This document shows positions 6,886 to 28,192 of a stretch of 32,600 nucleotides of DNA, one piece after another; the stretch's first letter is position 1; each line of letters begins with the position of its first letter. The stretch is taken from contig JAKANX010000001.1 of NCBI GenBank assembly GCA_021823425.1, forward strand, positions 4,068 to 36,667, written 5' to 3'. The notes under the pieces were generated by a model. That model ran no database searches. It was not told the DNA's origin and saw nothing but the letters and a program-made list of their open reading frames with translations. A program made the position numbers and the translations under genes. This stretch comes from Candidatus Micrarchaeota archaeon (GTDB taxonomy: Archaea; Micrarchaeota; Micrarchaeia; Anstonellales; Bilamarchaeaceae).

Positions 6886-6940
6886 GTTCCCGTTTCGGGT
6901 TCGCGGTTTTGCCCAGAACGCCGGACCCTGGACACGGAAC
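6886..6940. repeat. heptamer-array palindromic element, copy A
   Basis: Plus strand: GTTCCC GTTTCGG GTTCGCG GTTTTGC (6886-6912). This directly abuts, on the minus strand, GTTCCGT GTCCAGG GTCCGGC GTTCTGG (6940-6913). It shares the 10-mer GTTTCGGGTT with copies B, C and D. Confidence 0.6.
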
Positions 6941-12943: not shown

Positions 12944-12964
12944 GCTATATCTAACTGCAATTCC

Positions 12965-13022
12965 GTTTCCAGTTTCGGGTTTCCGGTTTTGGCCGCGGAA
13001 CCCGGAACGCGCAACGCAAAAC
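12965..13022. repeat. heptamer-array palindromic element, copy B, immediately upstream of tRNA-Val
   Basis: Plus strand: GTTTCCA GTTTCGG GTTTCCG GTTTTGG (12965-12992), then CC. Minus strand: GTTTTGC GTTGCGC GTTCCGG GTTCCGC (13022-12995). Confidence 0.7.
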
Positions 13023-13029
13023 GCCCATC

Positions 13030-13102
13030 GGGCCCGTAGTCGAATGGCTAAGACGCTACTCTCACACAGTAGAGATTCGCGGTTCAATCCCGCGCGGGCC
13101 CA
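13030..13102 (+). tRNA. tRNA-Val (anticodon CAC)
   Basis: Manual cloverleaf fold. Acceptor stem GGGCCCG/CGGGCCC, anticodon stem CTACT/AGTAG, loop CTCACAC (U33, CAC, A37), T arm CGCGG-TTCAATC-CCGCG, discriminator A. No CCA is encoded. Confidence 0.9.
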
Positions 13103-13120
13103 AGTATTCATAACCTGGCC

Positions 13121-13190
13121 GTTTCCGGTTTCCTGTTTCGGGTTTCGCAACTGAAAACGGTCTTGCTCAGGAAAACCGGAAACCACAAAC
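13121..13190. repeat. heptamer-array palindromic element, copy C, downstream of tRNA-Val
   Basis: Plus strand: GTTTCCG GTTTCCT GTTTCGG GTTTCGC (13121-13148). Minus strand: GTTTGTG GTTTCCG GTTTTCC (13190-13170), plus an isolated GTTTTCA (13158-13152). CCGTTTCCGGTTTCCTG is near-complementary to CAGGAAAACCGGAAACC. Confidence 0.65.
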
Positions 13191-13206
13191 TTTAACGGTG
13201 ATTACC

Positions 13207-14115
13207 ATGAACATTCTCGTAACCGGGGGCGCGGGCTTCATAGGCTCGAACCTCACGGCAGCGCTTCTAAAAGAGGGCCACCACGTCACGGTGCTGGACA
13301 ACTTCCACTCCGGAAGCGAGCAGAACCTGGAAACCCTGAACGTGAAACTCGTACGGGGCGGCGCAGGCGACTTGGACCATTTGGACGTGGGAAAAGTGGA
13401 AGCCATTTTCCACCAAGGCGTCTATTCCTCCTCGCCCATGTACAAGGAGAACCCCCGCCTCGTCGCAAAGGCCATCGACGACTTCATAGTGCTGCTGGAA
13501 TTCGCGAAAAAGCACAGCGCGCCGGTCGTGTTCGCGTCCACCTCGTCCATGTACAACGGCATCGCCCCCCCGCACAAGGAGGACATAATCCCGAAAGTGA
13601 CCGACTTCTATACTGAAGCGAGGATTGAGATGGAGCGCATGGCCGAGCTCTACCACAAGCTTTACGGCATGAAGATAATCGGGCTGCGCTATTTCTCCGT
13701 CTACGGCCCGCACGAGAGGAGCAAGGGCAAGTACGCCAACCTCGTTTCCCAGTTCATCTGGTCCATGGTGAAAGGGGAGGCGCCCGTGATTTACGGCGAC
13801 GGCTCCCAGACGCGGGACTTCACCTACGTTGACGACATAGTGCGCGCGAACATGATGGCCATGAAATCCAATGTGAAATACGGGATGTTCAACGCGGGCA
13901 CCGGAAGGACATACACCCTGAACCAGCTCGTGGAAATGCTGAACAGGCAGATGGGCACCTCCATTAAGCCGCAGTACATAGAGAACAAGATAAAGAACTA
14001 CGTGCAGGCGACGCTCGCGGATACGTCAAAGGCAAAGGCAGAAATCGGCTTTGAGGCCCAAATCACTCTTGAGCAGGGCATAGGCAAGCTCGTGGCCCTT
14101 GAGAAAGGGAAATGA
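13207..14115 (+). CDS. NAD-dependent epimerase/dehydratase family protein (extended SDR) with an atypical YxxxR at the catalytic position
   Basis: VTGGAGFIGSNL and ASTSSMYNG are present, but the expected YxxxK reads YTEAR. ATG 13207 is preferred over the track start GTG 13198. Confidence 0.8.
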   Translation: MNILVTGGAGFIGSNLTAALLKEGHHVTVLDNFHSGSEQNLETLNVKLVRGGAGDLDHLDVGKVEAIFHQGVYSSSPMYKENPRLVAKAIDDFIVLLEFAKKHSAPVVFASTSSMYNGIAPPHKEDIIPKVTDFYTEARIEMERMAELYHKLYGMKIIGLRYFSVYGPHERSKGKYANLVSQFIWSMVKGEAPVIYGDGSQTRDFTYVDDIVRANMMAMKSNVKYGMFNAGTGRTYTLNQLVEMLNRQMGTSIKPQYIENKIKNYVQATLADTSKAKAEIGFEAQITLEQGIGKLVALEKGK

Positions 14116-15272
14116 TGGACCTCATCATAACCTACCCCTTCATAGTCCAGAAAGGGGGCGCGGACAGGCTTCTATTGGAAATAGCCAAGAAGTTCGATCC
14201 CGTGATTCTTACGTCTTATCACAAGAAGAACTCGTCTTTCCTGGAGCTCGAGGAATTCGACATCCGCCAAATCAAGAGGCCGCTTTTCGAGAGCTCGCTC
14301 TTCATGATACGCGACGACGTGAAGCGCAACCTCATACTCTCCGGGATGAAATACTACGACTACAAGATAAAGGAGGACTACGACGCGATTTGCGCGTTCC
14401 TTCCGGGCCACTGGATAAGGAACAAGAACGAGCGCGTGTGCTGGTACTTCCTCGGGCCTTTACGGACGGCGTTCGATCTTTACGAGGAAAAGGTTTCCAG
14501 GCTCCCGGTCCATAAGCGCTTGCCCATGGACGCGGCCCTCAGCGTCTATCGGCACATGGAAAAGCAGATATGCCCGAAAATAGAGAAGACCGTTTCAGGC
14601 TCCCCTTACATAAACGTGCGCGACTCCGAATTCATACGCAAATACATACAAAAACCGCTGGACACAATCATTCCTCCTGCGGTGGACCACAAGGAGTTCA
14701 GGAACGAGGGCTACGGGAAGTATTTCTTCTACCCCTCGCGCGTTGTCCCGGAAAAGAGGTTCGAGTACGCGATAGACGCGTTCCGCGAATTCAGCAAAAA
14801 AGAGAATGGCTGGAAGCTCGTGCTCTCCGGTTTCCTGCTGGACCGGCCCCGCGAGCGCGCGTACGCGGAAAAGCTCAAGGAGCGCGCGCAGGGCCTTGAC
14901 GTTGAATTCCATTTCAGCCCCCCTGACAAGGAGCTCAAGTCCCTTTACGCCAACTGCCACGCGGTCCTGTTCTGCGCGGTGAACGAGGACTGGGGCTTCA
15001 TACCCTTGGAAGCGATGGCTGCGGAGAAGCCCTGCATATCCGTGAACGAGGGCGGCCCCGTATATTCCATCATTGACGGAAAAACAGGATTCCTAGTGAA
15101 CTCAACCGAGGAAATGGCGCAGAAGATGCTCTACCTCGCCCAGCACCCCGGCGAGAACGAGAAAATGGGCAAGGCGGGCAGGAAAAGGGTGCTGGAGAAC
15201 TACACGTGGGACGTGTTCGCGGACAGGATGAAAACCGCGTTCCGGGAGGCCGCGAAGGGAAGGGATTTCTGA
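14112..15272 (+). CDS. GT4-family glycosyltransferase, paralog 1
   Basis: C-terminal [26 protein letters not shown] is the GT4 E-x7-E region. Clear paralog of 15274-16434 and 18348-19496. ATGA overlap with the upstream stop. Confidence 0.85.
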   Translation: MMDLIITYPFIVQKGGADRLLLEIAKKFDPVILTSYHKKNSSFLELEEFDIRQIKRPLFESSLFMIRDDVKRNLILSGMKYYDYKIKEDYDAICAFLPGHWIRNKNERVCWYFLGPLRTAFDLYEEKVSRLPVHKRLPMDAALSVYRHMEKQICPKIEKTVSGSPYINVRDSEFIRKYIQKPLDTIIPPAVDHKEFRNEGYGKYFFYPSRVVPEKRFEYAIDAFREFSKKENGWKLVLSGFLLDRPRERAYAEKLKERAQGLDVEFHFSPPDKELKSLYANCHAVLFCAVNEDWGFIPLEAMAAEKPCISVNEGGPVYSIIDGKTGFLVNSTEEMAQKMLYLAQHPGENEKMGKAGRKRVLENYTWDVFADRMKTAFREAAKGRDF

Positions 15273-15273
15273 A

Positions 15274-16434
15274 ATGGACGTTTTGCTCTTCTACCCGGCG
15301 ATATTCCAAAAAGGCGGGGGCGACCGCGTAGTCCTTGAATTGGCAAAGAGGTTCAACGCCCCTATCTACACTTCAATTTACAGGAGGGAAACCTCGTACA
15401 ACGAATTCCGCGAGCTTGACGTGCGGGAAATCCGCTCCCCGCTTTTCGAAAAGCCATTCTTCTTCCTCAAGAAAGACTTCGTGTCCTACGCGCTCGCGAC
15501 CGCTGGAATGAAATTCCTCAATTACAAGGTCAGGGAGGATTACGACGTGATAAACGCGCACGCGAATCCCTCGAACTGGATAAGGAACAGGAACGAGCGC
15601 GTGTGCTGGTATTTCTACAGCCCGGTTCGCGGGGCCTACGACCTGTACAAGCAGAAGGTCGCGCACCTGCCCATCCACCAGCGCGCCCTCAAGAACGCGA
15701 TGTTCTCGTGGTACAAATTCTGGGACAGGAGGCTGGACCCGAAGATAGAGAAGACCGTCTCCGTCTCCCCGTACGTGAACGTGCGCGACGAAAAATTCAT
15801 CTCCGAATACGTGCGCAAGCCCGTGGAGCCCATACCCCCGGGCGTGGACCACAGGAAATTCAGGAACGAGGGCTACAGGAAATACTTCCTCTACCCTTCG
15901 CGCATAATCCCGGAAAAGAGGTTTGAATACGCCATAGAGGCGTTCAGGGAATTCTGCAGCAAGCAGAAAGGCTTCAAGCTCGTAATCGCGGGCTTCCTGC
16001 CCTACGGCGACCGGGAGCAGAAATACGCGCAAAGCCTTCGCGAGCTTTCCAAGGGCCTCGACGTGGAATTCAGGTTCAACCCCCCGGACAGGGAGCTCAA
16101 GTCCCTTTACGCCAACTCGTACGCGGTGCTGTTTTCCCCCATGAACGAGGACTGGGGATTAGTTCCTCTGGAAGCCATGTCATCCGAGAAGCCCTGCATC
16201 TCGGTGAACGAGGGCGGGCCCACTTACACTATACACGACGGCGAGACCGGCTTCCTGGTGAATTCGCCGCAGCACATGGCGCAGAAAATGCTCTATCTTG
16301 CGCAGGACCCTGCGGAGAACGAGAAGCTCGGCAGGGCGGGAAGGAAAAGGGTGCTAGCCAACTACACGTGGGAAATATTCCTCAGCAAGATGGAAAAGGC
16401 GCTCAGGGAGGTTGCGAAGGAAAAATCGAAATGA
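15274..16434 (+). CDS. GT4-family glycosyltransferase, paralog 2
   Basis: [26 protein letters not shown]. Colinear with paralog 1 over its full length (386 aa each). Confidence 0.85.
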   Translation: MDVLLFYPAIFQKGGGDRVVLELAKRFNAPIYTSIYRRETSYNEFRELDVREIRSPLFEKPFFFLKKDFVSYALATAGMKFLNYKVREDYDVINAHANPSNWIRNRNERVCWYFYSPVRGAYDLYKQKVAHLPIHQRALKNAMFSWYKFWDRRLDPKIEKTVSVSPYVNVRDEKFISEYVRKPVEPIPPGVDHRKFRNEGYRKYFLYPSRIIPEKRFEYAIEAFREFCSKQKGFKLVIAGFLPYGDREQKYAQSLRELSKGLDVEFRFNPPDRELKSLYANSYAVLFSPMNEDWGLVPLEAMSSEKPCISVNEGGPTYTIHDGETGFLVNSPQHMAQKMLYLAQDPAENEKLGRAGRKRVLANYTWEIFLSKMEKALREVAKEKSK

Positions 16435-16435
16435 T

Positions 16436-17275
16436 TCAGGGAAGCGAGAACCCCCTGAACTTGAATCCGGCTTTCGCGAGCTTGGAGCCGTCGCCAAGGA
16501 GCTTTTTCACCTTGTTGCTCACTACTTTCTCCTTCACTCCCTTGGCGCCCGCGTACTCCCGTATTTTAGTGTAAACTTCCGAAATCTTCGCGGGCTTTCC
16601 GCTGCACACGTTGTAGGTGCCGTCCAGTTTCCCGCTCGAAGCCGCGACAAGCACGGCAACAACGTCCTCCACCCTCAAAAGGTCAATTTCCGAATCAGGG
16701 TTGAAAACCTCCACAACCTTTTGCGTCCTGTACTTCTTGATTACGTCCGGCACCAAGAATCCTTCGGGCTGGTCAACCGCGTAAGAATTGAAAAGCCTGA
16801 AAATCGTTTTCTTGAACCCGCGCGCCTTCGCGGCGTAATTCACAGCGTCCTCGCCCACTAGCTTGGTGAGCCCGTAGAACGTCTGCGGGTCCGGAATTTC
16901 ATCTTCCCCATGGAGCGTGTCCCCGTTCTCGTACACGTGCGCCGAGCTCATGAATACCAGCCTAGCTCCCGGCCTCACGCGCTCGGCTATGTTGCGCGTC
17001 CCGTCCACGTTCGTCTTCCACGCGAGCTCCTTGTTCTGCTCGCAAACGCGGGGGTTCGCAATGGCTGCGAGATGGTACACAACGTCGTATTGGGAAATGT
17101 CCAGCTTGGGGTCGTTTATGTCCCCGACGATTACGCACTTGAGCTTCTCGTCCCCCGCGTCCTTGTCCTTGTCAAGCACGAGCAGGCAGACCTCGTTGCC
17201 CTTGGTTTTCTCCAGCGCCTTCTGAAGCCTCCTTCCTATGAAGCCCCTTCCGCCGGTGATGAGTATTTTCATCAA
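16436..17275 (-). CDS. NAD(P)-dependent SDR; putative GDP-4-keto-6-deoxymannose reductase or epimerase/reductase (Rmd/Fcl-like), assigned by context
   Basis: ILITGGRGFIGRRL, MSSAHVY and YGLTK (YxxxK). It lies directly downstream of gmd on the same strand. The substrate assignment is an inference from that position only. Confidence 0.65.
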   Translation of the reverse strand: MMKILITGGRGFIGRRLQKALEKTKGNEVCLLVLDKDKDAGDEKLKCVIVGDINDPKLDISQYDVVYHLAAIANPRVCEQNKELAWKTNVDGTRNIAERVRPGARLVFMSSAHVYENGDTLHGEDEIPDPQTFYGLTKLVGEDAVNYAAKARGFKKTIFRLFNSYAVDQPEGFLVPDVIKKYRTQKVVEVFNPDSEIDLLRVEDVVAVLVAASSGKLDGTYNVCSGKPAKISEVYTKIREYAGAKGVKEKVVSNKVKKLLGDGSKLAKAGFKFRGFSLP

Positions 17276-17289
17276 ATTCGCCCGCAGGA

Positions 17290-18264
17290 CTAAACCTTTC
17301 CTCCTTCGGAAATGAGCTTCACGTCCGAATCTACCATGATCTTGACGAGCTCCTTGAAGCCGGTCTTGGGCTTCCAGCCGAGCAGCTTCTCGGCCTTGGA
17401 CGCATCCCCGACGAGCTCCTGCACCTCGGCGGGCCTCATGAACCTTGCGTCGGTCTTGACGTATTTCTCATAGTCCTTGACGCCGATTGCCTCGAACGCC
17501 GCGATTACGAAATCCCTGACGCTGTGCGTGTGCCCGCTCGCAATCACGAAATCCTCGGGCTGCTTGTGCTGGAGCATCCTCCACATCGCGTCCACGTATT
17601 CGGGCGCGAAGCCCCAGTCCCTCTTCGCGTCCAGGTTGCCCAGCGTAATCGCCTTGTCCAGCCCGAGCTTTATCCTCGCGACCCCGTATGTTATCTTCCT
17701 CGTGACGAATTCAATCCCCCTTCTCGGGGACTCGTGGTTGAACAGTATCCCGTTCACTGCGAACATGTTGTAGCTCTCCCTGTAATTCACCGTCGCCCAG
17801 TATCCCATCATCTTTGCGAATCCGTAGGGGCTCCTCGGATGAAAAGGGGTATTTTCATTCTGCGGCACTTCCCTCACTTTCCCGTAAAGCTCGGAAGTGG
17901 AAGCCTGGTAGAATTTTATCGCGGGGTTGCAGTTCTTTATCGCCTCGAGCGCCTTCACCACGCCCAGGCCGTCAATCTCGCAGGTGCTCTCGGGCAGGTC
18001 CCACGAGCTGCCCACGAACGACTGTGCGGCGAGGTTGTAGAATTCGGAAGGCTCGGCCTTCTTGAGCGCCCTGTAAATGGAATAGCTGTCCGTAACGTCC
18101 CCGTAGATTACCTCAATCTTGTCCTTGAGGTGCTCAATTCTCTGGGTGTTCGGCGTGCTCGTCCTGCGGTTGAACCCGTAGACCTTGTAGCCCTTTGAAA
18201 GAAGCAGTTCCGCGAGATAGGAGCCGTCCTGCCCCGTTATCCCCGTGATGATTGCGCTTTTCAT
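17290..18264 (-). CDS. gmd: GDP-mannose 4,6-dehydratase
   Basis: [27 protein letters not shown]...[14 protein letters not shown] is the characteristic Gmd N-terminus. Start trimmed to ATG 18264 (MKSAIITG). Confidence 0.9.
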
Positions 18265-18347
18265 AAACAGACCCCACCGGTAATACGGCATTATTAACCT
18301 TTTTTTGGTATGGATAACTATTAAATCCATCCGATAGCGTGAATTCC

Positions 18348-19496
18348 ATGGACCTCGTAATGGCGCACCCCTTCCTCTTCCAGCGCGGAGGGGCCGAGCG
18401 GGTAGTGCTTGAAATCGCCAAAAAGTTCAATCCCGTGATATACTCGGTGCTCTACCAGCCGGAAAACACGTTCCCGGAATTCAAGGAGTTCGACATCCGC
18501 ATTTTGCCCCCCTCGCCCCTTGAAAAGCCCTTCTTCTTCCTCAACAACGACATAAGGCGCTCGTCCGCGGTCTCAGCTGGCTTCCGCTACTACTTCAACA
18601 GGATAAGGGAGGATTACGACGTGGTAAACCCGCACGGAACCCCGAGCGAGTGGATAAGGAACAGGAACGAGCGCGTGTGCTGGTACTGCCACACCCCCAA
18701 CAGGGAGGCTTTCGACCTGTACGAATTCCGGATGAAGGAACTTTCCCTTCCGAGGAAGGCGCTCAACGCGACTTTGCTCTCAGGGTACAAGCTATTTGAA
18801 TTCAACACAGTTCCGAGAATAGAGAAAATACTGACGAATTCCGAGGTTTCCAAGTCCAGAATCGCAAAATACCTCAAGCGCAGCGACGCGGAAGTGATAA
18901 GCCCGGGCGTCAATCCGAAGGAATTCAGGAACGACGGCTACGGAAAATACTTCCTCTACCCCTCGCGCATTACCCCGGAAAAGAGGTTCGAATACGCGAT
19001 TGAGGCGTTCCGCGAATTCAGCAGGAAGCAAAAAGGCTTCAAGCTAATAATCGCGGGCTTCGTGCCCAAGAAGGAGCGCGAGGCGAAATATTTCGAGAAG
19101 ATAAAGGGGCTGGCTCAGGGGCTGGAAATAGAATTCAGGCCCGACACGAGCCACGAGGAGCTCGTGAGCCTCTACGCAAACTCGTACGCTGTGCTCTTCT
19201 GCGCGGTGAACGAGGACTGGGGCCTTATCCCGATAGAAGCCATGGCCTCGGAAAAGCCCTGCATTTCCGTGAACGAGGGCGGGCCCGCCTATTCAATTGT
19301 GAACGGGGAAACGGGGTTCCTCGTAAACTCCGCGCAGGAAATGTCCGAAAAAATGCTATTGCTCGCCCAAAACCCGGACGAGAACGAGAAAATCGGCAAA
19401 GCCGGGAGGAAGAGGGTGCTCCAGAACTACACGTGGGAAATATTCCTGGGGAAAATAGAGAAATCGTTCAAGGAAGTTTCCGCGATGAAAAAGTGA
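18348..19496 (+). CDS. GT4-family glycosyltransferase, paralog 3
   Basis: [29 protein letters not shown] 18348 (MDLVMAHPF) aligns with the N-termini of paralogs 1 and 2. A TATA-like CTATTAAAT lies about 25 bp upstream. Confidence 0.85.
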
Positions 19497-20439: not shown

Positions 20440-20464
20440 CCGCGTTTCGCCGCGGTTCCACTCT

Positions 20465-20479
20465 GTTTTATTAAATTTC
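20465..20479 (+). promoter_or_regulatory. TATA box for gatE
   Basis: GTTTTATTAAATTTC lies about 27-40 bp upstream of ATG 20506. Confidence 0.4.
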
Positions 20480-20505
20480 CCAGCGATGTTGAATCGGTTC
20501 TTTTC

Positions 20506-22308
20506 ATGAAACTCGGCCTTGAAATTCATCAAAGATTGAACACGCACAAGCTCTTCTGCGAGTGCCCCAGCCCAGGCAGTTTCGACTTGCCAGTTTCGGG
20601 TTCCGAAACTGGGAACGTGAAACCCAAAACGGTTTTGCGCATGCTCCACCCGGTTTACAGCGAGATGGGCGAGGTGGACAAGGCCGCGCTGGAGGCCGCG
20701 GGCCGCGAGCAGTCCTTTGAATACCTCTTCTACCCGAATTGCGGCTGCCTCGTGGAATTGGACGAGGAGCCCCCGCACCCAATGAACTCCGAAGCGCTGA
20801 ACATAGGGCTGGAAATAGCGGCCCAGCTCAATTCCAAGCCCGTGGACGAAGTCCACACGATGCGCAAAATCGTGATAGACGGAAGCAACACCTCCGGATT
20901 CCAGCGCACCGCTGTTATTTCATTAGGCGGGAAGGTGGAAAGCTCCAAGGGCGACGTGCGCATAACCACCGTGGCGATAGAGGAAGAGAGCGCGGGAATA
21001 GTGGAAAAGAAGGACGGGCGGTCCGTGTATTCCCTTGACCGCCTCGGAATCCCGCTCGTTGAAATAGGCACGGAGCCGGACATAAAGGACCCCGAGCAGC
21101 TCCGCGAAGTTGCGGAAAAACTCGGCCTTATTTTGCGCGCGACCGGAAAGGTGATGCGCGGCCTCGGAACGATAAGGCAGGACGTGAACGTGAGCATAGA
21201 AGGGGGCGCGCGGGTTGAAATAAAGGGCGCGCAGGACCTCAGGACCATTTCCCTGCTCGCCCAGAACGAGGCCAAGAGGCAGGAGAACCTCCTTTCCATC
21301 ATAACCGAGCTGAAAAAGCGCTTCAACAACAAGTTCCATGTGGAAGCGCAAATCGTGGACCTGAGCCCTGCGTTCGTGGGAACGCAGGCAAAGATGGTAA
21401 AAACCGGGCTGGAATCGGGCCAGCGCATCCTCGGAATGAAATTGGCCCATCACGCGGGCCTTCTCGGAAAGGAAATAAATCCGGCAAGGCGCTACGGAAC
21501 CGAGCTCTCGGATTATGCGAAAACCGCCGGAGTGAAGGGGATAATACACAGCGACGAAGCGCTCGAGAAGTATGGAATCACTCCTGAGGAGGCGCAGGAA
21601 GTTCGCGCCCTTCTCGGCGTAAAGGAAGGCGACGCGTTCGCGATGGTCATCGCAAAGGAGAGCGTCGCGCGCAAGGCGTTGGAAAAAGCGCTTGAACGCG
21701 CCAACATGGATTTTGTTCCCAAGGAAACGAGGAAGGCGAACGAGGACGGCACCTCTTCATACATGCGCCCTCTTCCCGGAAAGGCGCGCCTGTACCCGGA
21801 AACCGACATCCCGCCGGTAAAGATAACGCAGGCACTCCTCGCAACCGTTGCCGAGGGCGCGTCCGAAAGCCTTGACCAGAAGCGCGAAAACCTTTCCAAA
21901 ATCCTCAACAAGGACATGGCCGAGCGCATACTTCGCTCAAAGCACCTCAAGCTATTCGAAAAGTTCGTGCAGGAAGGCGTGGAGCCCATGCTCGCAGCCT
22001 CCACGCTGGAGGACACGTTAACCATGCTCAGGCGCGAAAACGTCGCCGTGGACGAGCAGGCCCTCGTCTCCCTGTTCGCCTCCTACAAGAAAGGCGAATT
22101 CGTGAAATCCGCAATACCGGACCTACTTCGGGGGATGGCTGCGGGAAAAACCGTGGAGCAGGCCCTTGACGAAAAACAGCTCAGGAAAATAACCGGAGCT
22201 GAGCTCAAGAGAATAATCGAGGAGAACAAGGGCAACTTCGGCCAGATAATGGCCAAATACAGGCTCAGGGTGGACGCGGCAGAAGTCCAAGTTCTCCTGA
22301 AAAAGTGA
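20506..22308 (+). CDS. gatE: Glu-tRNA(Gln) amidotransferase subunit E
   Basis: MKLGLEIHQRLNT..KLFCEC, SEMGEVDKAAL and CLVELDEEPPHPMN form the typical archaeal GatE N-terminus. Length is 600 aa with a GatB/YqeY-like C-terminal tail. Confidence 0.9.
   Translation: MKLGLEIHQRLNTHKLFCECPSPGSFDLPVSGSETGNVKPKTVLRMLHPVYSEMGEVDKAALEAAGREQSFEYLFYPNCGCLVELDEEPPHPMNSEALNIGLEIAAQLNSKPVDEVHTMRKIVIDGSNTSGFQRTAVISLGGKVESSKGDVRITTVAIEEESAGIVEKKDGRSVYSLDRLGIPLVEIGTEPDIKDPEQLREVAEKLGLILRATGKVMRGLGTIRQDVNVSIEGGARVEIKGAQDLRTISLLAQNEAKRQENLLSIITELKKRFNNKFHVEAQIVDLSPAFVGTQAKMVKTGLESGQRILGMKLAHHAGLLGKEINPARRYGTELSDYAKTAGVKGIIHSDEALEKYGITPEEAQEVRALLGVKEGDAFAMVIAKESVARKALEKALERANMDFVPKETRKANEDGTSSYMRPLPGKARLYPETDIPPVKITQALLATVAEGASESLDQKRENLSKILNKDMAERILRSKHLKLFEKFVQEGVEPMLAASTLEDTLTMLRRENVAVDEQALVSLFASYKKGEFVKSAIPDLLRGMAAGKTVEQALDEKQLRKITGAELKRIIEENKGNFGQIMAKYRLRVDAAEVQVLLKK
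20579..20638. repeat. heptamer-array palindromic element, copy D, in frame inside gatE
   Basis: Plus strand: GTTTCGA CTTGCCA GTTTCGG GTTCCGA. Minus strand: GTTTTGG GTTTCAC GTTCCCA GTTTCGG. Contains a perfect 10-bp stem, CCAGTTTCGG-GTT-CCGAAACTGG (20590-20612). The 13-mer CCAGTTTCGGGTT is identical to copy B (12969-12981). Confidence 0.6.
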
Positions 22309-26776: not shown

Positions 26777-26836
26777 GCGGTTAATTTAGTTGTAAATATT
26801 TAAAAAACATGTTTAAAGACCGGGCATCGGGATTTG

Positions 26837-26848
26837 AATATAAATTTA
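26837..26848 (+). promoter_or_regulatory. TATA box for gatD
   Basis: AATATAAATTTA lies 19-30 bp upstream of ATG 26867. A separate A/T block at 26792-26808 fits the divergent gene. Confidence 0.4.
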
Positions 26849-26866
26849 ACCGACCATGATAAATCC

Positions 26867-28192
26867 ATGTACTTTTCCAAAACATCATCGATGCTCAAGT
26901 CCGCTGGCGCGGACATAGGAGACAAGGTCAGGCTGGAAACCAAGGAAGGGGTTTTCGAGGGGATTGTGATGCCCCGCGCTGGGGCGAGCGACGACCTCGT
27001 ATTGAAACTGGATTCAGGCTACAACGTGGGAATAAACCCGGAGGGAGCGAAAATCTCGCTCGTGGAAAAATCCCCGAAGAAGCAGGAAGAGGGCGAGGAG
27101 CCGCACAAGCGCGGCGACATCGCGATTCTGGGCTGCGGGGGGACGATTTCCTCAAAGGTGGAGTACAAAACCGGCGCGGTCTACCCTGCGCTCACACCCA
27201 AGGACCTGTTCAACGCGTTCCCCAAGATAAGGCAGATGGCTTCCGTTCACACCCGTTTGCTCTTCCAGCTCTTTTCCGAGGACATGAGCATCGGCCACTG
27301 GAAGCTCGCTGCGCAGGCTGTGCGCGAAGAGATAAGCGAGGGCGCAAAGGGAATCGTGATAATGCACGGCACGGACACGATGGGCTACACCGCCGCTGCG
27401 CTGAGCTTCGCGCTCCAAAGCCTTCCTGTCCCGGTAGTCCTAGTTGGCGCACAGCGCTCCTCGGACCGGCCGAGCAGCGACAACGAGACAAACCTCCTCA
27501 ATTCCATACTGATAGCGAAAAGCGACGTTGCACATGTGGGAATATGCATGCACGCCAATTCCAGCGACGATTTCGCGTATTTCCACAATGGGACCAAAGT
27601 GCGCAAGATGCACGCCTCGCGCAGGGACGCGTTCCAATCCATAAACTCGCTTCCGCTCGCGAAGGCGGATTACAAAACCTCCAAGGTCGAGCCGCTTGTT
27701 CAGGCCTACAACAAGAGGGACGAGAAAAGGAAGCTTGATTTGCAGGACCACTTTTCCGAGAACGTGGGGATGCTCTATATCCACCCGGGGATAAGCCCGA
27801 AACTTGTTGACAAGTTCGCTGATTACGACGGACTTGTATTGGTGGGCACCGGCCTCGGGCACACACCCACGAACCCGTTCGACAACAAGCTCGGAAAAAG
27901 CATAGTTCCGAACCTCAAGTCGCTCGCCTCTTCAGGAGTGAACCTCGTGATGAGCACCCAGACGATATACGGAAGGGTGAACATGGATGTCTATTCGTCC
28001 GGGCGCCTTTTGCAGGAAATCGGCATTATCGGAAATGGCGCGGACTGGGCCCCTGAAACCGCTTACGTGAAGCTCGCGTGGGTTCTCGGGAAGGAGAAAG
28101 AGCCCAAGAAAGTGCGCGAATTGATGCTCAAGAACGTCGCTGGGGAGATAAGCGAGCGCACCCCCTACGAGGAGAAGTTCGTGGACTTCTGA
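26867..28192 (+). CDS. gatD: Glu-tRNA(Gln) amidotransferase subunit D (asparaginase family)
   Basis: ILGCGGTISS and HGTDTMGYTAAALSF asparaginase motifs, plus an N-terminal GDKVRLETKEGVFEGIVMPR domain typical of GatD. The start is ambiguous: the track uses TTG 26834, ATG 26867 is preferred from the TATA spacing, and ATG 26891 is possible. Confidence 0.88.
   Translation: MYFSKTSSMLKSAGADIGDKVRLETKEGVFEGIVMPRAGASDDLVLKLDSGYNVGINPEGAKISLVEKSPKKQEEGEEPHKRGDIAILGCGGTISSKVEYKTGAVYPALTPKDLFNAFPKIRQMASVHTRLLFQLFSEDMSIGHWKLAAQAVREEISEGAKGIVIMHGTDTMGYTAAALSFALQSLPVPVVLVGAQRSSDRPSSDNETNLLNSILIAKSDVAHVGICMHANSSDDFAYFHNGTKVRKMHASRRDAFQSINSLPLAKADYKTSKVEPLVQAYNKRDEKRKLDLQDHFSENVGMLYIHPGISPKLVDKFADYDGLVLVGTGLGHTPTNPFDNKLGKSIVPNLKSLASSGVNLVMSTQTIYGRVNMDVYSSGRLLQEIGIIGNGADWAPETAYVKLAWVLGKEKEPKKVRELMLKNVAGEISERTPYEEKFVDF

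Follow-up and report, generated by a model that had tools for sequence, protein, structure and literature searches.

A palindromic heptamer array in frame within gatE

The window analysed here is a 32,600-nucleotide stretch of a Candidatus Micrarchaeota genome that we term G000 (contig C16:4068-36667; assembly of 1.07 Mb in 141 contigs, 57% G+C, 77% completeness). It carries gatE, the gene for subunit E of the Glu-tRNA(Gln) amidotransferase, and gatE in turn contains, in frame, two four-unit arrays of GTTYCNN heptamers that form an inverted pair of 52 nt (20579-20630). The features of the locus are listed below by window position.

20506-22308, plus strand: gatE coding sequence (CDS), Glu-tRNA(Gln) amidotransferase subunit E, 600 residues, assigned from NCBIfam, PDB and AlphaFold2 matches
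20572-20604, plus strand: net extra 33 nt (11 codons, P23-S33, PGSFDLPVSGS) from protein and codon alignments with the nearest orthologs, the exact boundaries depending on the alignment
20579-20606, plus strand: left arm, four units GTTTCGA CTTGCCA GTTTCGG GTTCCGA, matching 18/20 core positions
20603-20630, minus strand: right arm, four units GTTTTGG GTTTCAC GTTCCCA GTTTCGG, matching 19/20 core positions and found by the strict genome census
20590-20612, plus strand: perfect 10-bp stem with 3-nt loop at the palindrome centre, 0 matches in 100 dinucleotide shuffles
26834-28192, plus strand: gatD, the partner subunit, with PF18195 GatD_N (64.6 bits) at G000:C16:30979-31131, i.e., window 26912-27064

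The open reading frame (ORF) at 20506-22308 scores 688 bits against the NCBIfam equivalog NF003107 (cut-off 456), and its product matches the PDB GatE chains 1ZQ1 E (4e-132) and 2D6F E (7e-124). The equivalog-level match and the presence of the partner gatD identify the product as GatE; because gatD accompanies gatE, the GatDE pathway is complete in the window. In a set of 5.8 billion proteins the best non-self GatE reaches 79% identity, and the relatives carry names from Micrarchaeota.

Read on the plus strand, 20579-20630 is GTTTCGA CTTGCCA GTTTCGG GTT CCGAAAC TGGGAAC GTGAAAC CCAAAAC. A first-pass annotation of this DNA had described a palindromic heptamer element in frame in gatE, and both arms are indeed period-7 arrays. 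The perfect stem that it reported (CCAGTTTCGG-GTT-CCGAAACTGG) is likewise present and occupies gatE codons 29-36, 85-107 nt from the start codon. Folding of the 76-nt region 20570-20645 gives an RNA minimum free energy of -28.4 kcal/mol (z -2.45) and a DNA z of -3.0. The 13-mer CCAGTTTCGGGTT (20590-20602) is, as had been stated, identical in an intergenic copy upstream of tRNA-Val (12969-12981) and occurs six times in the genome. The segment had been placed at 20579-20638; what was said of its sequence is correct, and its codon boundaries are 20578-20637, one base away, so that it encodes GatE S25-L44. The left arm yields FDLPVSGS, a peptide of the type encoded by sense-oriented arrays elsewhere (cf. 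LFPVSGS and RFPVSGSG in other genes), and the right arm, read on the sense strand, yields SETGNVKPKT, with the same pattern as AETGNRKPRT in contig C53, SETGNGKL in C63 and AGNGKPKT in C89. LPVSGS followed by SETGNVKPKT is the exact product of the full palindrome.

The GatE insert is lineage-specific and lies in a predicted disordered loop

The closest non-self GatEs, P0002 (79% identical) and P0003 (78%), read CPS-TEGKGEPRRVGR-MLHPV at this position, and G000 GatE reads CPS-PGSFDLPVSGSETGNVKPKTVLR-MLHPV, 11 residues more. The 11 residues are also missing from G004, G005, G002, G001 and G007, i.e., from five of seven congeners, and from about 40 sequences of other genera; the nearest insert-free orthologs are 79-70% identical to G000 GatE. 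Both crystallised GatEs are gapped at the insert, that of P. abyssi by 11 residues (1ZQ1) and that of M. thermautotrophicus by 10 (2D6F). In a maximum-likelihood GatE tree, G000 is nested among insert-free sequences, and at the gatE loci of the insert-free relatives no window matches the array pattern at 16/20 or more. The ortholog alignment suggested in the first-pass annotation thus came out in favour of a lineage-specific segment. Its estimate of an in-frame gain of about 30 nt agrees with the 11-residue, 33-nt difference, although its linker lengths (24 residues here, 14-16 elsewhere) have to be corrected: the spacing from CP to SEMG is 30 residues in G000 GatE versus 19 in the closest relatives. 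The element measures 52 nt but the net gain is only 33 nt, therefore about 20 nt of ancestral loop were replaced, or overlaid by the right arm; with the best relatives only 79% identical, the empty site and the junctions are not fixed to the base.

An AlphaFold2 model of GatE built on a 71-sequence alignment has a mean predicted local distance difference test (pLDDT) score of 88 and a predicted template-modelling (TM) score of 0.83, and superposes on 1ZQ1_C and 2D6F with target-normalised TM scores of 0.82-0.84. Residues 24-37 form a coil of pLDDT <50 between strand 2-11 and strand 41-46, as the structural check proposed earlier had anticipated. The insert is therefore predicted to occupy a loop position compatible with the GatE fold, being disordered in the model and missing in the PDB homologs. 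The length of this loop differs in three more lineages, namely P0015 (+14 residues), G006 (+2) and G003 (+12). In G003 gatE (L007), the codons after LFCEC contain two 12-nt tandem duplications, GAATGTCCAAGC/GAATGCCCAAGT (ECPS ECPS) and AACGAGACAGAA/AACGAAACAGAA (NETE NETE); thus the GatE loop is generally prone to insertion and deletion.

The gatE segment belongs to a genome-wide array family

A census of period-7 runs with three or more consecutive GTTYC units counted 135 arrays in G000 and 0 in a shuffled genome, and the gatE segment is a member of this multi-copy dispersed family. Exactly four units make up 93 of the 135 arrays. Within the unit, positions 1-3 and 5 hardly ever change, position 4 takes T or C, and positions 6-7 are variable, position 6 shifting from C (unit 1) to G (unit 4). 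Some 53 arrays are followed directly downstream by an inverted partner (gap -4 to +5 nt), the others being single arms.

Counts of the array pattern reach 68 in G000, 41 in G004 and 38 in G005, fall to 0-5 in the remaining congeners and are sporadic elsewhere in the family, with about 0 in a reversed-pattern control. In G006, whose G+C content is 33%, we found AT-shifted arrays with GTTTT units, one of them 130 nt upstream of its own gatE (L004 positions 1342-1369, GTTTTCA GTTTTCG GTTTCCA GTTTTGC). Because the strict GTTYC pattern misses such arrays, the family may be more widespread than the counts indicate. The literature that we searched yielded no published description of such repeats in Micrarchaeota or DPANN. 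Further copies in the window are as follows.

12965-13022, no strand assigned: intergenic palindromic copy of 4+4 units between a TATA-like box and tRNA-Val, sharing the 13-mer with gatE
13121-13190, no strand assigned: intergenic copy between tRNA-Val and an epimerase gene, with a strict array at 13121-13148 and a degenerate inverted partner
6886-6940, no strand assigned: intergenic copy with a 1-nt indel, owing to which the strict census missed it
13321-13348, minus strand: array-like 28 nt in the NAD-dependent epimerase gene (13198-14115), CAGAACC TGGAAAC CCTGAAC GTGAAAC, encoding QNLETLNVKL

About 75 nt separate the TATA-like box, GCTATATCTAA, from tRNA-Val downstream of it, and the 58-nt palindromic element lies in this interval (window 12945-13103). 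Because of this placement, the element is probably transcribed within the pre-tRNA leader.

In-frame arrays occur in other conserved genes

Genes of G000 were called with a crude self-trained ORF scorer, the start codons of which are unreliable, and arrays less than 90 nt from a predicted start were excluded from the in-gene count. With these calls, 32 arrays fall well within ORFs, 28 in antisense orientation. In 881 confident CDSs (807 kb), 24 antisense and 4 sense windows match at 18/20 or more, the count in 20 codon shuffles being 0. In-frame arrays are present in at least 26 conserved genes, gatE included, and about 2% of G000 genes are affected. Pfam domains were found in 23/23 scanned array-bearing ORFs, which include DnaK, UvrA, UvrC, type IA topoisomerase, class I tRNA synthetase, GluRS and Mre11-like proteins as well as RibA, phosphoglucomutase, leucyl aminopeptidase, HypC, D-Tyr-tRNA deacylase and DHH/RecJ-like proteins; for the LysRS, L32e, FolD and GTPase hosts, identification was from sequence. 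In antisense arrays the encoded peptides are permutations of E-T-G-N-x-K-P-x-T (AETGNRKPRT, SETGNGKL, AGNGKPKT, AEPETGNGKR), in sense arrays F/L-P-V-S-G-S. Inserts of the full-palindrome kind, like that of gatE, are present in L32e and the GTPase.

Seven further sites were compared across five congeners. G000 has extra residues at 6/7 of them, in five genes: GluRS (+9), L32e (+16), GTPase (+29), LysRS (+11 and +6) and FolD (+10). These alignments show in-frame placement in conserved protein genes with absence from orthologs for gatE, GluRS, L32e, the GTPase, LysRS (twice) and FolD. At the FolD site, G004 has +8 in common with G000; therefore, some inserts are older than speciation and diverged later. 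The array in the epimerase gene lies in a conserved part of the protein, which equals in length the G005 ortholog reading SEGNLKGVNVKL there; its origin could lie in a shared insert of old date, in a conversion-type event or in rare chance.

Arrays are also seen in the C-terminal tails of DnaK (AQNPEPGTGNGKP, G000:C53:2-1504) and type IA topoisomerase (IGTGNAKQET, G000:C85:13043-15208), which fits survival of insertions in disordered regions. One ORF at G000:C14:6456-7712 (L062) combines a HypC/HupF domain (residues 1-66) with a radical-SAM domain (residues 144-298) and holds one array inside HypC (DRNAKLETGN) and another in the linker (TGTQNPKL); it may represent two genes fused by an array, or a wrong ORF call.

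The same GatE loop carries an array in a second lineage

At the same GatE columns, G006 reads SETQNLEPKT and G003 reads NETENFKPKT; the underlying DNA has period 7 and matches at 17/20, without a left arm. G006 and G003 are sister taxa (support 100/98), distant from G000 in the GatE tree. An approximately unbiased (AU) test with the first 55 GatE residues removed rejected a G000+G006+G003 clade (p 0.002), the group having been defined after the tree had been seen. Common ancestry of the two arrays was rejected on the tree and this test, and by manual count the G000 and G006/G003 arrays agree at variable positions no more than unrelated arrays do. Because the tree and the AU test place G006/G003 apart from G000, the GatE loop seems to have gained arrays on two separate occasions, with orientation and frame alike. 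This double hit could result from strong filtering for sites that are permissive, or from a target preference. The longer loop of P0015 was considered as a third acquisition and rejected, its 14-residue extra not being array-like DNA.

Gene order around gatE

The order of a methyltransferase or glycosyltransferase gene, gatE and purB (on the opposite strand) is kept in the nearest relatives (window 20440-20505; loci L031/L032). gatD directly follows purB in the contig of P0003 and lies about 3 kb further on in G000. Upstream, window 14112-19496 holds three paralogous glycosyltransferase genes of about 386 residues each with 60-78% nucleotide identity (repeat families D1-D4), and a minus-strand gene pair stands between copies 2 and 3.

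Origin and persistence of the gatE array

The membership of the gatE segment in the array family, its lineage specificity, its location in a loop modelled as disordered and the occurrence of in-frame arrays in no fewer than 25 further conserved genes are established by the comparisons above. Most probably the segment, as a member of the dispersed heptamer-array family, was gained in a tolerant loop in the G000 lineage and is carried there as a selfish or neutral passenger. The data support derivation from the repeat family, an age that is recent on the genus scale and retention in the disordered loop. A copy would have entered gatE in the lineage leading to G000 with the reading frame kept, replacing about 20 nt of ancestral loop for a net gain of 11 residues. 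It would persist there because the site is an unstructured, length-variable loop between strands 1 and 2 of the GatE N-terminal domain, and because arrays are open in all frames and the antisense ones encode hydrophilic Gly/Thr/Asn/Lys/Pro/Glu peptides. Given these properties of arrays and loop, selection would filter insertions for frame, orientation and permissive loops, and the 24:4 antisense bias would follow from selection on frame and peptide character. No function in GatE would be required: the insert would behave as tolerated selfish or neutral DNA, like the Rickettsia palindromic elements (RPEs), and by this analogy is putatively neutral for GatDE.

The first-pass annotation had spoken of a mobile hairpin colonising a tolerant surface loop. 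That reading is largely supported by family membership, lineage specificity and the low-confidence coil. A hairpin does not define the element: in-gene copies are for the most part single arms, and complementarity between arms genome-wide is no higher than the unit consensus predicts, i.e., we see no selection for hairpin pairing. As to mobility, we infer from presence and absence of arrays at orthologous sites that the family has spread by some form of insertion. A trans-acting transposase, microhomology or template-switch repair, and gene conversion are candidate copying routes. Ancestral sequence is unit-like at several 3' junctions (GTPase, GGGAAAC; LysRS, GGGAAA; FolD, CGAAAA), a resemblance that hints, speculatively and with orthologs of 65-84% identity, at microhomology. 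Contig ends are not enriched in arrays (3/135).

Several observations weigh against gain by insertion of a mobile element. No consistent target-site duplication was found at 7 sites, where the orthologs, 65-84% identical in amino acids, are too diverged to fix the junctions, and fixed element ends could not be defined. The net gains are 18, 27, 30, 33, 33, 48 and 87 nt, none of which equals the array length, and flanking ancestral codons were replaced. Copy-paste subfamilies were not detected, pairwise identity at variable positions being that of the column-shuffle null. The Y1/RAYT transposase family PF01797 gave 0 matches in G000, a 77% complete genome, and matches in 6/14 named control genomes; in the same incomplete assembly no ORF-bearing element is bounded by inverted arrays, the genes between arrays being DUF711 and GNAT. 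In gatE itself, the right arm shares alignment columns with ancestral residues, and G001 has array-like EGGNGKPKS at the right-arm columns without length change; because of these two features, conversion of some form, instead of simple insertion, is a possible origin of the gatE array.

The overlap of the right arm with ancestral residues is also what a two-step local origin would lead one to expect. In such a scheme an antisense array, or an array-like loop, came first, and snap-back or template switching then duplicated neighbouring sequence in inverted form, giving the left arm. The two arms are reverse complements at 17/21 positions, the inner 10 perfectly so; the 33 nt gained amount to roughly one arm; the right arm and the ancestral loop align in every column; and G006 and G003 have the right arm only. 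Yet the closest relatives lack array-like DNA at the right-arm position (no window of 16/20 or more in their loci), the left arm, too, agrees with the consensus of the family and with LPVSGS, its typical peptide, and identical full palindromes occur in L32e and the GTPase. Moreover, arms genome-wide are complementary at about 6/12 variable positions, as the consensus predicts, which leaves the 6/9 of gatE unexceptional. We regard a local origin as improbable. Mere compositional resemblance, by which a loop rich in Glu, Thr, Gly, Asn, Lys and Pro would resemble the repeat by accident, could draw on the similar amino-acid composition of the ancestral loop (EEGKGEPKR) and on the array-like DNA without length change in the epimerase gene. 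The shuffle controls (0 windows of 18/20 or more in 20 codon shuffles of 807 kb of CDS; 0 arrays in the shuffled genome) effectively refute it, both arms match the family, and the 11 extra residues are missing from all close relatives, so that the chance left for this explanation is vanishingly small.

A DNA or mRNA function might instead keep the segment, with the hairpin pausing ribosomes or stabilising the transcript, or with the arrays binding a protein that regulates many genes. The stable predicted hairpin speaks for this, as do the constrained-motif look of the units (a conserved GTTYC core with 3/7 positions free and a position-specific C-to-G gradient), a four-unit preference that recalls the Xanthomonas and Nostoc heptamer repeats (PMC4692102), and an orientation bias of 24:4 in genes and, weakly, 19:9 between co-directional genes. 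However, most in-gene copies are single arms without a hairpin, array presence at orthologous sites is not conserved among congeners, the host genes are functionally unrelated, and peptide-level selection is the simpler account of the orientation bias; there is no Rfam match, and the gatE copy lacks G-quadruplex potential. The structural or regulatory role for the loop DNA or mRNA that the first-pass annotation had offered thus found no support, and we give a function of this kind little credence. Assignment to a known RNA family was rejected (no match), as were an archaeal bulge-helix-bulge intron, the predicted fold having no pair of 3-nt bulges 4 bp apart, and a G-quadruplex at the gatE copy, whose purine strand CCGAAAC TGGGAAC GTGAAAC CCAAAAC has on inspection only one G-tract. 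Finally, a doubtful though by no means negligible view is that the arrays come from a unit-based, possibly homology- or microhomology-guided writing of four-unit GTTYCNN blocks, or are binding sites for a Micrarchaeota nucleic-acid-binding protein. If true, unit writing would extend to dozens of essential genes and could strike the GatE loop in two lineages independently, and either this or arrayed binding sites would amount to a genome-shaping mechanism of a new kind for DPANN archaea.

Relation to known repeats

According to summaries of the RPEs of Ogata et al. (PMC10969869, PMC1166351), these are dispersed palindromes that lie in frame in many housekeeping genes of a reduced genome, with 85 of 728 copies in ORFs in R. 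felis. The parallel with Rickettsia drawn in the first-pass annotation is closer than it claimed, with at least 26 conserved G000 genes carrying in-frame arrays. Both are dispersed palindromic families of small, reduced genomes, found between genes and in frame in unrelated housekeeping genes, with a recurrent encoded peptide and with host proteins predicted to remain functional; about 28-32 of the 135 G000 arrays are in ORFs. RPEs are described there as about 100-150 bp long with family-specific sequence, whereas the G000 element is 28 nt (arm) or about 52-60 nt (pair) of degenerate 7-nt units, resides in an archaeon, lacks copy-paste subfamilies and has variable net insert lengths. Size, sequence, unit structure and host domain set the G000 arrays apart from the RPE families proper, to which they have no sequence homology, although no alignment with RPE sequences was made. 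The gatE array is one case in a genome-wide, RPE-like colonisation of coding regions that differs in repeat type and host.

In architecture, i.e., period 7 and four-unit bias, the arrays are closest to the Xanthomonas and Nostoc repeats, and in behaviour they match the RPEs. Dispersed heptamer repeats include (GGGAATC)n of Xanthomonas, (GGGGAYT)n of Nostoc and the cyanobacterial short tandemly repeated repetitive sequences (STRR); those of Xanthomonas and Nostoc are near-perfect, form G-quadruplexes, are depleted from coding regions and show a four-unit bias (PMC4692102). The G000 arrays share with them the 7-nt period, chromosome-wide dispersal and the preference for four units (93/135), and the purine-strand unit NSGRAAC (e.g. 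GGGAAAC) resembles GGGAATC of Xanthomonas. In contrast to the near-identical G-quadruplex-forming units of those repeats, G000 units vary at positions 4, 6 and 7, four G-tracts are missing from most arrays, the gatE copy included, inverted pairing is frequent, and roughly a fifth to a quarter of all arrays are intragenic.

[quoted passage not shown] For the G000 arrays, no consistent target-site duplication was found at the 7 sites, whose junctions the diverged orthologs do not fix, and no parent insertion sequence in the 77% complete genome; their insert lengths are not fixed, and the whole G000 element is an inverted pair. Unlike REP/BIME, they come with no RAYT/Y1 transposase, and the flank consensus of the G000 arrays has no GTAG/CGTC head. 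The variable net gains with replaced flanking codons, the lack of copy-paste subfamilies and the consensus-level complementarity of the arms likewise speak against a classical MITE or REP mechanism.

Implications

To our knowledge, in-frame colonisation of housekeeping genes by selfish repeats has until now been mainly a Rickettsia curiosity. G000 would present an unrelated repeat type doing likewise in an archaeon with a similarly reduced genome, in hosts that include aminoacyl-tRNA synthetases, a ribosomal protein, DnaK and GatE. Such inserts would inflate apparent divergence and indels in the marker proteins used for DPANN phylogenomics. A second independent system may also show by what means arrays spread in the absence of a visible transposase, how random insertions of peptides are tolerated and filtered by essential proteins, and how protein loops grow.

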